Origin: Alphaproteobacteria bacterium
GTDB taxonomy: Bacteria > Pseudomonadota > Alphaproteobacteria > GCA-2731375
NCBI GenBank assembly: GCA_965232515.1
Contig: CBDDPY010000002.1
Span: 5,312,001-5,376,000, forward strand
Direction: 5' to 3'
DNA length: 64,000 nt
The notes under the pieces are model-generated. The model was not told where the DNA came from, did no database searches, and saw nothing but the letters and a program-made list of their open reading frames with translations. Made by a program: the position numbers and the translations under genes. This document shows positions 17,621 through 20,708 of this stretch, in pieces; the stretch's first letter is position 1, and every line of letters begins with the position of its first letter.

Positions 17621-17929
17621 TTACGCGGTATCTCCGTTACTGCCATCCGGATTCAGATTCAGGCCGACCAGCACACGTTCCTTTTCCGTCAGGTCGCCGA
17701 TTATGGTGCGCATGGGCGGCGGCAATTCCTTGATCACCGTCGGCGTCGCCAGGATCCGGTCCTCCTCGGCCAGGTTCGGGTGCTCCAGCACGTCGATGAT
17801 CAACAGTTCGTATCGGTTATCCAGGGTGTCGCGGCAGATCTGCCGCAGTGTCGTGATCGCGTTCTCCGAGCGCTCGGTGCGTCCGGTAATGAACAGCTTC
17901 AAGACATACCGTTCCGTGTCGCTATTCAT
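17621..17929 (-). CDS. kaiB: Circadian clock protein KaiB (KaiB3-like)
   Basis: YVLKLFITG, IDVLEHPNLAEEDRILATPT, LPPP, IIGDL; stop codon abuts the kaiC ATG. Confidence 0.96.
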   Translation of the reverse strand: MNSDTERYVLKLFITGRTERSENAITTLRQICRDTLDNRYELLIIDVLEHPNLAEEDRILATPTVIKELPPPMRTIIGDLTEKERVLVGLNLNPDGSNGDTA

Positions 17930-18806
17930 GGCCGGACCCCCTTTCAACTGGATCTGCTGTGGGACCATGGCCGCGTCCCAGGGCGAAGACGCGATACTCG
18001 CCGGCGAGATATCCCATCATTTCGAGCAGGACAATCCGGCCCTCTGTCGACATCGCTTTGGCTTTGCGGCCGGTCATGTTTGCTGTCCGTGCCTTCATTG
18101 CAGACAAATGAATTTCGATGACGTCGCGGGGCGCGACCTTCAGGCGTCCCAGTCGCACGGCCAGCTGCTTCAAACGCGGCGGCACGTTCAGATCGGCCTG
18201 GGTGACGGTCTGGTTGACCGCGGCTTCCATCAGCTCGCCATACTCGTTGACAATGTCCGAAAACTGCAGCGGCGCCCCGTCCTGAAGCCGGGTGACCTGG
18301 AATGCCCGCGCCGACGTGCTGGCCAGCGGCGGCGCTGCCAGGCGCTCCAGCGATCCGCGTTCTCGGGCCTGCTGCGCTTCGTATTCCGCCGCTTCCAAAC
18401 GCATCAATATCTTGTGACGCTCCAACGCGTAGCGTACCGAGCGGCGTACCAGTTCCGGATTGAGATCGCCCTTGACCAGAAAGTCCTGCGCACCGACCTG
18501 GATCGCCTTCAGGCCAAGGTCGGCGTCATCGAGTCCCGTCAGCACGATGATCGGCACCGAAGGCGCCGCCGCGTACAGAGATTCCAATGTCGCCAGGCCT
18601 TCGGTATCGGGCAGGTTCAGATCGAGAATCGCCAGATCGACAGGCTCATTCTGGATCAGGCCGAGGCTGTCGCTCAGCGTCTCGGCCTCGCGAAAATCGA
18701 AACTGTCGCTCTCGACGTCTTTGAGCCGCTGGCGAAACAATGCACGCTCGGCGGCGTCGTCGTCGATCAGGAGGACGCTCTTCGGTTGCCGATGTGCAAG
18801 CTGCAC
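17922..18806 (-). CDS. kaiA3: Receiver domain fused to a KaiA-like C-terminal domain (KaiA3-like)
   Basis: Intact REC (IDDD, ILD, LT, VK) plus helical C-domain LGRLKVAPRDVIEIH...EGRIVLLEMMGYLAGEYR; directly upstream of and overlapping kaiB. Confidence 0.8.
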   Translation of the reverse strand: MQLAHRQPKSVLLIDDDAAERALFRQRLKDVESDSFDFREAETLSDSLGLIQNEPVDLAILDLNLPDTEGLATLESLYAAAPSVPIIVLTGLDDADLGLKAIQVGAQDFLVKGDLNPELVRRSVRYALERHKILMRLEAAEYEAQQARERGSLERLAAPPLASTSARAFQVTRLQDGAPLQFSDIVNEYGELMEAAVNQTVTQADLNVPPRLKQLAVRLGRLKVAPRDVIEIHLSAMKARTANMTGRKAKAMSTEGRIVLLEMMGYLAGEYRVFALGRGHGPTADPVERGSGHE

Positions 18807-18977
18807 GGATTGACCTCGAAACCGCCCGCGCGACCCCCTCGGACGGATAATGCCTCAATATTCCACTTAGTCGAGGAAAATCCTGAAATAATTCGGTAAT
18901 TTAGAACCTTCTTATACTATTCGCTTGGCGTCGGTTTGCAGACAAGCCGAGTAAAAGCGCGCGAGTTATTCACGCTA

Positions 18978-20054
18978 TTAGTCGGCGCGACGGCGCAACG
19001 TAAAGAAGAACGTGCTGCCGCCAAGCTCGTTCGCCGCCACCCAGATCGTGCCGCCATGTTCGTTAACGATTTTCTTGCAAAGCGCGAGGCCGATGCCCGT
19101 GCCCTCGCCTTCGCCACGCGGCCGCGTGCGCTGAAACATGCGGAAAATCCGCTCTCTATGCCGTTCCTCGACGCCAATGCCGTTGTCCGCGACCGAGAAC
19201 AGCCAGTCGTCGTCCTTGGTCTCGGCGGCGACATGAATGCGGGGCGTTTCCGCGCCGCGATAGGCGATCGCATTGCCGATCAGATTCTGAAACACCCGCA
19301 TGATCTGCGGTCCACTGCAGGTGATTTCCGGCAGTGGGTCCTGGCTGATGGCGGCCCCGCTTTCGTTGATTGCGGCGTTGAGATTTTCCAGCGCCGTCGC
19401 CAGCAAATTGTCGGCCTGGAACGTCTCGAACGGCTCGGGCCGCGCACCGATTCGCGCATACGACAGCAGATCGTCCATCAGATTCGCCATCCGGTCCGCC
19501 GTCGTGTCGACATGCTCGAGCAGTTCGCCGGCGTCGGCGTCGCCGGATTTGTCGTTGCGAAGGCGCAGCAGATCGATGAAGGCCTTGATGTTCTTCAGCG
19601 GCGCCTTCAAGTCGTGCGAGGCGACATAAGCGAACTGTTCGAGTTCGCGGTTCGAATGTTCCAGCGATTTGCGCTGCGTGATGTCGTTTTGAATGCCGAC
19701 GAAGGCCGTCAATTCGCCGCCGGCATCGAACACCGGCGTGATCACCACATCGTTCCAGAACGGCCGGCCGTCCTTGCGATAGTTCAGAATCTCGGCGCGC
19801 ACGCTTTCTTGCGCAGCGATCGCGTCGCGGATGCGGGTAACCGTCGCCGGATCCGTGTCCGGGCCCTGCAGGAACCGGCAGTTCGCACCCAGACAATCGT
19901 CGGCGCCGTAGCCCGTCAGGCTGGTGAAGGCGGGATTGACGAAAACGAGCGGATTGTCGGGCAGCGACGGATCGCTGATCGAAACGCCCGACAGCGTGGC
20001 TTCGACCGCCGCCTCGAAGCTGAGGCGGAGTTCCGGTCGTGCGCGATTAGGCAT
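18978..20054 (-). CDS. LOV-domain blue-light sensor histidine kinase
   Basis: DNPLVFVN, GANCRFLQ (photoactive Cys), NYRKDG, FWN, FVGIQNDIT; H-box FAYVASHDLKAPL; N, G1 and G2 boxes. Confidence 0.95.
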   Translation of the reverse strand: MPNRARPELRLSFEAAVEATLSGVSISDPSLPDNPLVFVNPAFTSLTGYGADDCLGANCRFLQGPDTDPATVTRIRDAIAAQESVRAEILNYRKDGRPFWNDVVITPVFDAGGELTAFVGIQNDITQRKSLEHSNRELEQFAYVASHDLKAPLKNIKAFIDLLRLRNDKSGDADAGELLEHVDTTADRMANLMDDLLSYARIGARPEPFETFQADNLLATALENLNAAINESGAAISQDPLPEITCSGPQIMRVFQNLIGNAIAYRGAETPRIHVAAETKDDDWLFSVADNGIGVEERHRERIFRMFQRTRPRGEGEGTGIGLALCKKIVNEHGGTIWVAANELGGSTFFFTLRRRAD

Positions 20055-20080: not shown

Positions 20081-20566
20081 CTAGATCAGTTGAAACTGTC
20101 CGGTCGCCTTGAAACGCAGATAGGCCTCGATGCTGCGGACCATGTTCGGCAACGTCTCGGGCAACGCGGTCGGCGCGAACCAATCGAGCGCCAGGGTTTC
20201 GTCATCGCCGCTGAGTTCGCCGGAAAATGCGGTCGCGTAGAACATCAGGACATGGGCGTGCAGCCGGTGGCCGTTCGGATAGGTGAAACGTTCGAATTGC
20301 GGTTCGCTGCCATGGCCGAACGGCCGCGGCGCGACGACGTCCAGGCCGGTTTCCTCGCGGGTTTCCCGCACGATGGTCTGCAGCACGGAATCGCCGTCTT
20401 CGGCATTGCCGCCAGGCAGTCCCCAAACGCCGAAATCTGCCCGCTTCTGCAACAGGATTCGGCCGTCATCACGCTCAATGACAATACGGGCGCCAGGCAC
20501 CAGCAGCAGCCGATTGCCGACAACATCGCGTAATCGTCCGAGATAGCTCTCCGCGAATCCAGTCAT
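20081..20566 (-). CDS. NUDIX hydrolase
   Basis: GNAEDGDSVLQTIVRETREETGL Nudix box. Confidence 0.9.
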   Translation of the reverse strand: MTGFAESYLGRLRDVVGNRLLLVPGARIVIERDDGRILLQKRADFGVWGLPGGNAEDGDSVLQTIVRETREETGLDVVAPRPFGHGSEPQFERFTYPNGHRLHAHVLMFYATAFSGELSGDDETLALDWFAPTALPETLPNMVRSIEAYLRFKATGQFQLI

Positions 20567-20708
20567 GCCACCGTCCAGGCGATTTCGCCGGCCGTACTGC
20601 CTTTGTTGATGCCGATCAACGCGCGATTCGGGGGTGAAGTTAGCCTGCCAAGCGCCGACGGCCAACGGTTCCGTTGGTCAGAACGTGTGGCAAAGCGGAG
20701 GGCCCGAG

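Follow-up and report, generated by a model that had tools for sequence, protein, structure and literature searches.

How could light reach a Kai timer in a bacterium in whose genome no photosynthetic reaction centre is found? This question is raised by a kaiA3-kaiB-kaiC cluster located on a 64,000-nucleotide (nt) stretch of DNA, here called the window, from an alphaproteobacterium of the GTDB lineage GCA-2731375 (assembly GCA_965232515.1, contig CBDDPY010000002.1, positions 5,312,001 to 5,376,000 of the forward strand). Immediately upstream of kaiA3 lies a gene encoding a LOV histidine kinase. The original prediction, made from the sequence, held that the KaiA3-like protein keeps a phosphorylatable receiver, that the adjacent LOV kinase has no other obvious partner, and that phosphorylation of KaiA3 by this kinase would provide a direct light input to the clock. 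Our analysis names the LOV kinase as a candidate donor for the KaiA3 receiver; we give about even chances to the proposal that it phosphorylates KaiA3, either alone or along with a second receiver encoded downstream.

In cyanobacterial clocks, light reaches the Kai oscillator indirectly via the quinone redox state (PMC11372060, PMC13421787), and canonical KaiA carries a pseudo-receiver without the Asp which senses oxidised quinones (PMC11372060). KaiA3 was described as a chimeric KaiA homologue, Sll0485 of Synechocystis sp. PCC 6803 (Koebler et al. 2024, PMC11372060). According to that paper, the phospho-Asp is conserved in most KaiA3 orthologues, orthologues outside cyanobacteria include those of Rhodospirillum and Bradyrhizobium, and an input from an unidentified cognate kinase was already proposed. 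A review of July 2026 still calls the KaiA3 input signal unidentified (PMC13421787). The text of PMC11372060 contains no occurrence of LOV or PAS, and within the literature collection searched, no publication was found that connects a LOV kinase with kaiA3 or other kai genes. The clock module described here is of an already known kind (KaiA3-type, published 2024), and both the conserved phospho-Asp and the idea of an unidentified kinase are published; new is a candidate kinase for the KaiA3 input.

The kinase upstream of kaiA3 is a predicted LOV photosensor

The first 135 residues of the kinase were compared with solved LOV domains and matched them with 136 bits (E 4e-39), the motifs GxNCRFLQG, NYRKDG, FWN and GIQND being aligned. 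The NCBIfam family YtvA_fam matched the LOV domain with E 1e-44, and Pfam assigned PAS_9 (E 3.3e-22), HisKA and HATPase_c to the 358-residue protein. C59 in GANCRFLQG corresponds to the photoactive Cys and H147 in VASHDLKAPL, the H-box, to the phospho-His. Cys motif, flavin-pocket motifs and H-box are intact; the protein is a predicted LOV photosensor kinase, and the original prediction had rightly taken it, as far as its sequence goes, for a bona fide LOV kinase. The photoactive Cys motif is also kept in the database relatives P0122 to P0124. Two family models were matched below their cut-offs and in part only: the blue-light-activated histidine kinase NF052306 of NCBIfam (136 bits, cut-off 450, LOV part aligned) and the hybrid LOV kinase PRK13557 (195 bits, cut-off 631, LOV and HisKA part aligned).

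The kinase core belongs to the bacteriophytochrome-type class, here termed class L, which matched at least 7413 database proteins at E ≤ 1e-30 and was set apart from the class of REC-kinases in a quick IQ-TREE phylogeny.

The host genome (G000, 96% complete) was found to contain no reaction-centre genes and no phytochrome PHY domain. A redox cue derived from photosynthesis, as in cyanobacteria, is therefore unlikely in the host. Elsewhere, the genome encodes a LOV-GGDEF protein which keeps the Cys (GRSCRLLQG; G000:C2 1019097-1020200, L068 901-2004) and a LOV-like CHASE5-PAS-PAS-kinase-REC hybrid without the Cys (GHNPRILQG; G000:C2 3609109-3611721, L157 1610-4222).

The neighbouring gene encodes a KaiA3-type protein with an intact receiver

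Pfam recognised a single domain in the 294-residue protein encoded next to the kinase, Response_reg over residues 11-113 (E 1.1e-20). Its receiver motifs are LLIDDD (D15-D17), ILDLNLPD (D62), VLTG (T90) and FLVKG (K112). In an alignment of 33 full-length relatives, D16, D62, T90 and K112 were each kept in at least 90% of the rows. Acidic pocket, phospho-Asp, Thr and Lys are in place as originally stated, and the receiver looks phosphorylation-competent by its sequence.

The C-terminal part was identified by profile and fold comparison. An alignment of the C-terminal 145 residues cut from 26 family members (A2) was converted to a profile and searched against the PDB. Top matches were KaiA C-domains (1v2z and 1q6a, E 3.5e-4; 5jwr, E 1.5e-3), followed by five more KaiA sequences at E 0.02-0.08 with only apolipoprotein A-I noise in between; the blocks D-V-I-x-I-H and E-x-R-L-x-L-x-x-M-G-x-L-x-x-Y-R were paired with KaiA helices. 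An AlphaFold model of the C-domain reached a predicted local distance difference test score (pLDDT) of 86.3 and a predicted template modelling score of 0.73. Foldseek returned KaiA for all top six matches of this model (E 0.045-0.3, probability 0.99-1.0). With VIA-align the top eight chains were all KaiA (Z 10.8-11.8, root mean square deviation 2.4-4.0 over 90-101 residues) and RsbR-N/stressosome domains came next (Z 10.0 and 9.1); Z values below about 13 are not decisive for helical bundles, and the KaiA-like assignment is made from sequence, fold and gene context together.

The C-domain had to be searched alone: with the full-length profile or model, the PDB yielded nothing but receiver domains. 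Used as a single sequence against the PDB, the domain gave one match of E 0.15, which is not meaningful. Pfam yielded no KaiA match: the whole protein matched Response_reg only, and the C-terminal 145 residues, searched up to E 10, matched RsbU_N only (E 0.044). In the full-length AlphaFold2 model (pLDDT 86.3) the receiver helix alpha5 continues as a 40-residue helix into the KaiA-like bundle, and the closest solved structures are receiver-plus-helix proteins, among them a dual-sensor kinase, NtrC1 and DgcR.

Furthermore, the gene is directly followed by kaiB and kaiC, all on one strand, an order also found in most of the 112 loci described below, and the profile family includes a kaiB-linked gene in a cyanobacterial metagenome-assembled genome (MAG; L040). 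Profile, fold and kaiB-kaiC context agree, so that the protein is, as predicted from sequence and model, a KaiA3-type chimera; its initial identification as KaiA3-like was borne out.

The KaiC encoded in the cluster carries the phosphosite pair S424/T425 and a C-terminal tail of the KaiA-binding type, without the long Rhodobacter-type extension. It matched the solved KaiC 8zn5 with 674 bits, HISTITD and tail being aligned, and the Rhodobacter-type structures 8db3/8dba only with E 6e-90. Judged by these alignments, this KaiC is of the type with a KaiA-binding tail and far from the Rhodobacter type that does without KaiA.

Six same-strand genes stand in a row (Table 1). kaiA3, kaiB and kaiC overlap or abut, and gaps of 26 nt, 171 nt and 160 nt separate NUDIX gene and kinase, kinase and kaiA3, and kaiC and the last kinase, respectively.

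Table 1. Genes, domains and spacer of the kai cluster; positions refer to the window.
Feature	Position	Strand	Basis
NUDIX hydrolase gene	20081..20665	-	Pfam NUDIX E 3.4e-20
LOV-HisKA-HATPase_c sensor histidine kinase, 358 residues, soluble, without fused receiver	18978..20054	-	
LOV domain, kinase residues 14-127	19674..20015	-	PAS_9, YtvA_fam, solved LOV chains
Kinase core HisKA + HATPase_c, residues 138-355, class L	18990..19643	-	Pfam
AT-rich spacer, 171 nt, between LOV kinase and kaiA3	18807..18977	-	
KaiA3-type protein (predicted), 294 residues: receiver, long alpha5/linker helix (117-157), KaiA-like C-terminal helical bundle	17922..18806	-	
Receiver domain, residues 11-113, D15/D16, D62, T90, K112	18468..18776	-	Pfam
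KaiA-like C-terminal domain, residues ~171-277	17976..18296	-	Profile and fold search
kaiB, 115 residues	17621..17968	-	Pfam KaiB E 1.1e-25; NCBIfam KaiB E 1.3e-29
kaiC, 504 residues	16106..17620	-	NCBIfam KaiC 694 bits
REC-PAS-HisKA-HATPase_c kinase, 530 residues	14353..15945	-	Pfam

Kinases recur upstream of kaiA3 genes

The distribution of kaiA3 and its neighbours was analysed at increasing distance from the host. A full-length KaiA3 relative was found in 3 of the 33 genomes of its order and the C-domain in 4 of 401 genomes sampled from its class; a word-based search with the C-domain region returned 6 close relatives only. The second species of the same genus, G024, showed the identical five-gene order with 88-97% protein identity. 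G141, which belongs to another family of the class, has the order PAS-kinase, kaiA3, kaiB, kaiC and REC-PAS-kinase, its PAS domain reading GREPGSILQG without the Cys, and in G033 a kinase with transmembrane (TM) and PAS regions is followed by a single REC, kaiA3, kaiB and kaiC. Additionally, a LOV kinase with a 78% identical core (P0124) and a KaiA3-like protein with 56% identity (P0007) each came from a single Logan contig of 14,927 nt, probably the same one.

Two collection scans seeded with a six-sequence alignment (A3) added 27 and 80 loci from many phyla. The resulting 112 loci with the C-domain were mapped by home-made profiles and grouped into 91 clusters at 85% identity; 40 clusters with less than 1500 nt upstream were set aside and 51 could be assessed. 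A same-strand kinase was located upstream in 16 of the 31 clusters whose REC has the phospho-Asp, in one of the 5 with a REC without Asp, and in 4 of the 15 with a non-REC N-terminus. The 16 kinases comprised 11 of class L (window and G024 counted apart), 3 of another class, found in Planctomycetota, and 2 REC-kinases. The single kinase of the second group was of class L; the four of the third were three class H kinases and one REC-kinase. Class-L kinases preceded 11 of 31 Asp-bearing clusters versus 1 of 20 other clusters; Fisher tests gave p = 0.017 for class L and p = 0.083 for any kinase, values to be read as trends only since related sequences are not independent.

Class-L kinases were found upstream of kaiA3 in several phyla, in many cases separated from it by no more than 70 nt, and the sensors of the upstream kinases vary (LOV, PAS_9, TM-PAS, PAS_4, GAF-GAF, multi-PAS, HAMP-PAS, CBS). 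With the same order in G024 and a kinase upstream in about half of the Asp-bearing clusters, the kinase next to kaiA3 appears to be more than a chance neighbour.

Two broader interpretations were rejected. A LOV input general to kai clusters is not supported, as the Cys is missing from the other kai-linked LOV-like PAS domains, whose motifs are NPRILK, TPRLLK and similar, and one ancient orthologous clade of kaiA3-adjacent kinases was dismissed because their rows are scattered in the kinase tree.

Some loci were organised differently. In L058, L065 and L138 (Chloroflexota-type), the gene next after the KaiA3-like one encodes a histidine kinase instead of KaiB or KaiC. In five Planctomycetota loci (L047, L061, L062, L064, L066) the order is kinase, KaiA3-like gene and kaiC without kaiB between, and the receivers, which read NDD...D...S...Q, have another residue in place of the conserved Lys. 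In L102 (1460-3841, P0241), on a metagenome contig of 1.3 Mb, the kinase preceding kaiA3 has a membrane region, two GAF domains and an A-C-H-E-H stretch.

The KaiA3 C-domain is combined with many sensory domains

A profile of the C-domain retrieved 1916 cluster representatives from 1.84 billion proteins, 1608 of them at E ≤ 1e-10. Among the best 147 members the domain was always C-terminal. The 42 long members of this set carried REC together with PAS and/or GAF (20), PAS and/or GAF without REC (21) or MEDS (1). Apparently, the C-domain can stand behind REC, REC-PAS, REC-GAF-PAS, PAS, GAF, the membrane domain MASE3 or MEDS (e.g., L053 5765-7378, L039 6885-8501 and P0348); the MASE3 forms were found in Desulfobacteraceae.

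One protein combined a LOV domain with the KaiA3 domain. P0303 (407 residues, from one Logan contig of 8594 nt) consists of a degenerate receiver without phospho-Asp, a LOV domain with GRNCRFLQ and a KaiA3 C-domain; the LOV domain of this unrelated protein is 47% identical to that of the window. Because P0303 wires LOV to KaiA3 in cis, a link in trans between the LOV kinase and KaiA3 becomes more plausible for the window, with the proviso that this is a single protein on a single contig.

Possible other partners of the kinase and of the receiver

Several observations weigh against the proposed transfer from the LOV kinase to KaiA3; they concern a second receiver, the spacer in front of kaiA3 and the distribution of the kinases, and are given here together with the alternative explanations.

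The immediate neighbours of the LOV kinase gene are the NUDIX gene upstream and the REC-KaiA-like gene downstream, and no separate single-domain response regulator stands beside it, in agreement with the original prediction. However, the claim that the kinase has no other obvious partner failed: the REC-PAS-HisKA kinase at the other end of the cluster carries at its N-terminus a second receiver, which falls in one subfamily with the KaiA3 REC. The LOV kinase might act on this receiver only, such that light would gate the output kinase and the KaiA3 receiver would be served by another donor, which we consider unlikely but worth reckoning with.

Three other kinases of the host genome have a class-L core (E 4e-66, 3e-45 and 7e-41). 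Each of them is a multi-PAS kinase heading a module in which a single-domain REC and then a REC-HisKA-HATPase kinase follow (G000:C2 ~4637285-4641880, 3512085-3516195 and 1839633-1843723; L072, L073, L074). The best three matches to the KaiA3 receiver in the genome were the REC-kinase receivers of these modules, with NtrC-type regulators next. In a FastTree phylogeny of receivers, read without support values, most KaiA3 RECs were placed among the N-terminal RECs of REC-(PAS)-kinases and the single-domain RECs apart from them. The kai cluster has the same two kinase classes at its two ends and resembles a module of this kind in which KaiA3, KaiB and KaiC stand between the kinases. This likeness would tie the KaiA3-type receiver to class-L kinases at the level of the family; by the same subfamily and the same module layout, the REC of the downstream kinase appears an equally natural target.

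The downstream receiver keeps D59, T and K, but has a degenerate acidic pocket, with DPN in place of DD, and matches Pfam only weakly (E 3.2e-7), and it is KaiA3 that holds the position immediately after the kinase. Furthermore, in the L079 group and in L063, both of the order kinase-(REC)-kaiA3-kaiB-kaiC, no REC-kinase occurs within about 3 kb after kaiC. KaiA3 is the only same-strand receiver near the kinase in the L079 group; a small single-domain REC lies between kinase and KaiA3 in L063. Because these loci lack a REC-kinase at that distance, KaiA3 is favoured as a genuine kinase target.

The core of the downstream kinase groups with the REC-kinase class in the tree, and the arrangement is orthologous in G024, G141, G031 and many other loci. 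This protein is the probable output kinase of the clock. No KaiB-like domain was found in the kinases of the window. A SasA-like layout with a KaiB-like N-terminus, PAS and kinase core was seen just after kaiC in a non-cyanobacterial MAG (L043 9447-11660).

The KaiA3 receiver may also be phosphorylated by the downstream REC-PAS kinase itself, either as feedback or in a loop internal to the clock, or receive its phosphoryl group from a kinase encoded elsewhere; the LOV kinase would then be irrelevant to it. Indeed, the REC-PAS kinase is the more constant companion of kaiA3 and is present downstream of kaiC in many loci without an upstream kinase, such as L049, L050, L080 and L093. In G031 (L032 6612-9158) the KaiA3-like gene directly precedes a REC-PAS kinase without kaiB or kaiC between, and no kaiC was found in this 78% complete genome with the window KaiC as query. 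However, KaiA3, KaiB3 and KaiC3 of Synechocystis are reported to oscillate in vitro without any kinase (PMC11372060), so a clock-internal kinase is not required, and this explanation leaves the enrichment of class-L kinases upstream of Asp-bearing KaiA3 unaccounted for. We regard it as improbable.

Finally, the adjacency might be incidental: the LOV kinase would belong with the NUDIX gene, from which it is separated by the smaller gap, and serve an unlinked regulator, the kai genes forming a separate unit. The spacer was inspected for signals of transcription. A weak hairpin follows the stop codon of the kinase gene; neither this hairpin nor the stretch just 3' of the stop codon is conserved between the window and G024. 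In contrast, the ~95 nt nearest to kaiA3 (window 18807-18900) are about as conserved between the two species as coding sequence. This block may be a promoter or a leader; together with the AT-richness of the spacer, its conservation suggests a separate promoter for kaiA3. A scan of the stretch for promoters and terminators was discarded as uninformative, as it returned no promoter-like site and 5 terminator-like sites versus a mean of 5.6 in shuffled sequence, i.e., no excess.

Three RNA runs of raw reads gave 0 reads on the stretch and thus provide no test. An RNA library was available as contigs from a related strain that is 95-99% alike, without transcript ends or strand and with 8 records beyond those listed. 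One contig covers 19049-20471 across the NUDIX-kinase junction, and a second bridges kaiA3 and kaiB; no contig bridging the spacer was present among those listed, and the depth of the library had its minimum in the spacer and at the 5' end of the kaiA3 gene. Contigs across two genes neither prove nor exclude a joint transcript; NUDIX gene and LOV kinase are possibly co-transcribed.

The distribution of the kinases also weighs against the proposed transfer. The photoactive Cys motif was found in only 2 of the 112 loci, both from one genus (window and G024), so that the LOV form is confined to one lineage. Of the 31 clusters whose REC is intact, 15 have no kinase upstream, and in L055 a class-L kinase comes first although the KaiA3 receiver has lost the Asp. 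In the quick IQ-TREE phylogeny the kaiA3-adjacent kinases are scattered, with 11 label changes over 15 rows and many unresolved forks. As the family of this core is huge, the association of kinase and kaiA3 may reflect repeated recruitment or be partly due to chance.

An incidental adjacency is nevertheless improbable. Kinase and kaiA3 are still neighbours in the sister species, at a protein identity of 88%, and probably also in a more distant relative (P0124/P0007; 56-78% identity); class-L kinases recur upstream of kaiA3 in several phyla, often at short distance; and a cognate pair is compatible with separate promoters.

Discussion

We propose a KaiA3-KaiB-KaiC post-translational timer framed by two histidine kinases. 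In the upstream kinase, blue light would cause the LOV domain to form an adduct between flavin and Cys59, and this adduct would change autophosphorylation at His147. Asp62 of the KaiA3 receiver would then accept the phosphoryl group, and the N-terminal REC of the downstream kinase may be a further acceptor. Phosphorylation of the KaiA3 receiver would re-set the dimer via the alpha5/linker helix and change the KaiA-like grip on the KaiC tail; we infer this step because the modelled alpha5 runs on into the KaiA-like bundle. The changed grip would alter autophosphorylation of KaiC at S424/T425, with KaiB antagonising, and the downstream REC-PAS kinase would read the clock out. Domain identities, intact catalytic and acceptor residues, and gene order with its recurrence were observed or predicted from sequence and model, and from these we infer all transfers and conformational steps.

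Hence, the light input via KaiA3 put forward in the original prediction stands in part. The KaiA3 chimera, its competent receiver, the LOV kinase, the recurrence of a kinase upstream and the LOV-KaiA3 fusion speak for it. The claim of a sole partner had to be given up, an input through the phospho-Asp is not novel, and the LOV link is that of one lineage.

The system resembles that of Synechocystis in that a REC with phospho-Asp is joined to a KaiA-like bundle, that the gene is located directly upstream of kaiB and kaiC, and that KaiC lacks a long C-terminal extension, with S424/T425 here corresponding to S423/T424 in KaiC3 (features as given in PMC11372060). The likeness to Sll0485 is one of features, not of sequence comparison. 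Unlike in Synechocystis, kaiA3 is here directly preceded by a LOV kinase gene, and no reaction-centre genes were found in the host. In Rhodospirillum rubrum, the cluster with the kaiA3 orthologue Rru_A3293 is preceded by the PAS histidine kinase Rru_A3296, which was suggested to feed an environmental signal, redox or oxygen, to the clock (Geron et al. 2024, PMC10931921). Both are alphaproteobacterial kaiA3-kaiB-kaiC clusters preceded by a PAS-domain histidine kinase; however, the R. rubrum kinase is described as a PAS kinase only (LOV does not occur in the text of PMC10931921) and, by its locus tag, is not the immediate neighbour of kaiA3. With canonical KaiA of Synechococcus elongatus (1r8j, 4g86, 5c5e) the protein shares the four-helix fold of the C-domain (Z 11.0-11.8, below the range decisive for helical bundles). 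In contrast to canonical KaiA, its receiver keeps DD, D, T and K, and sequence identity is only ~15-17%.

The LOV kinase is similar to the Brucella LOV-HK (6ph3/3t50), which its LOV domain matched with 128-133 bits and with which it shares the Cys-bearing motif and the fusion to a histidine kinase. Other bacterial LOV histidine kinases are that of the Caulobacter LovK-LovR system and the LOV-HK of Pseudomonas syringae, and the known partners in these systems are regulators of general stress or adhesion. The kinase described here differs from them in that its core is a bacteriophytochrome-type HisKA without a fused receiver and its neighbour a predicted clock activator. Histidine kinases are also tied, both genetically and functionally, to the cyanobacterial Kai oscillator, CikA for input and SasA for output. 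CikA, which contains a pseudo-receiver, does not phosphorylate KaiA but exerts its effect via KaiB-KaiC binding and RpaA. In the window, too, histidine kinases are encoded next to Kai genes, the downstream REC-PAS kinase probably serving in an output role.

More generally, KaiA3-type proteins might be modular zeitgeber adaptors in which a constant KaiA-like output is combined with interchangeable inputs, i.e., either a REC that receives its signal from a sensor kinase or, in cis, a PAS, GAF, MASE3, MEDS or LOV domain; in the window the input would be blue light by His-Asp transfer. We put this forward tentatively, as an idea that is possible but somewhat doubtful.

Three leads result from this analysis: a LOV kinase that is a candidate for the input, the repeated occurrence of class-L kinases upstream of kaiA3, and a natural LOV-KaiA3 fusion. 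As kinase and receiver form a small soluble pair with a predicted light switch, the question of the KaiA3 input becomes testable with four purified proteins. If true, the transfer would be the first case of a photoreceptor acting directly on a Kai oscillator, and the kinase class still sought for KaiA3 would be named. If the link holds, it would also offer a light-controllable KaiA for synthetic clocks and a way for non-photosynthetic bacteria to entrain a Kai timer.

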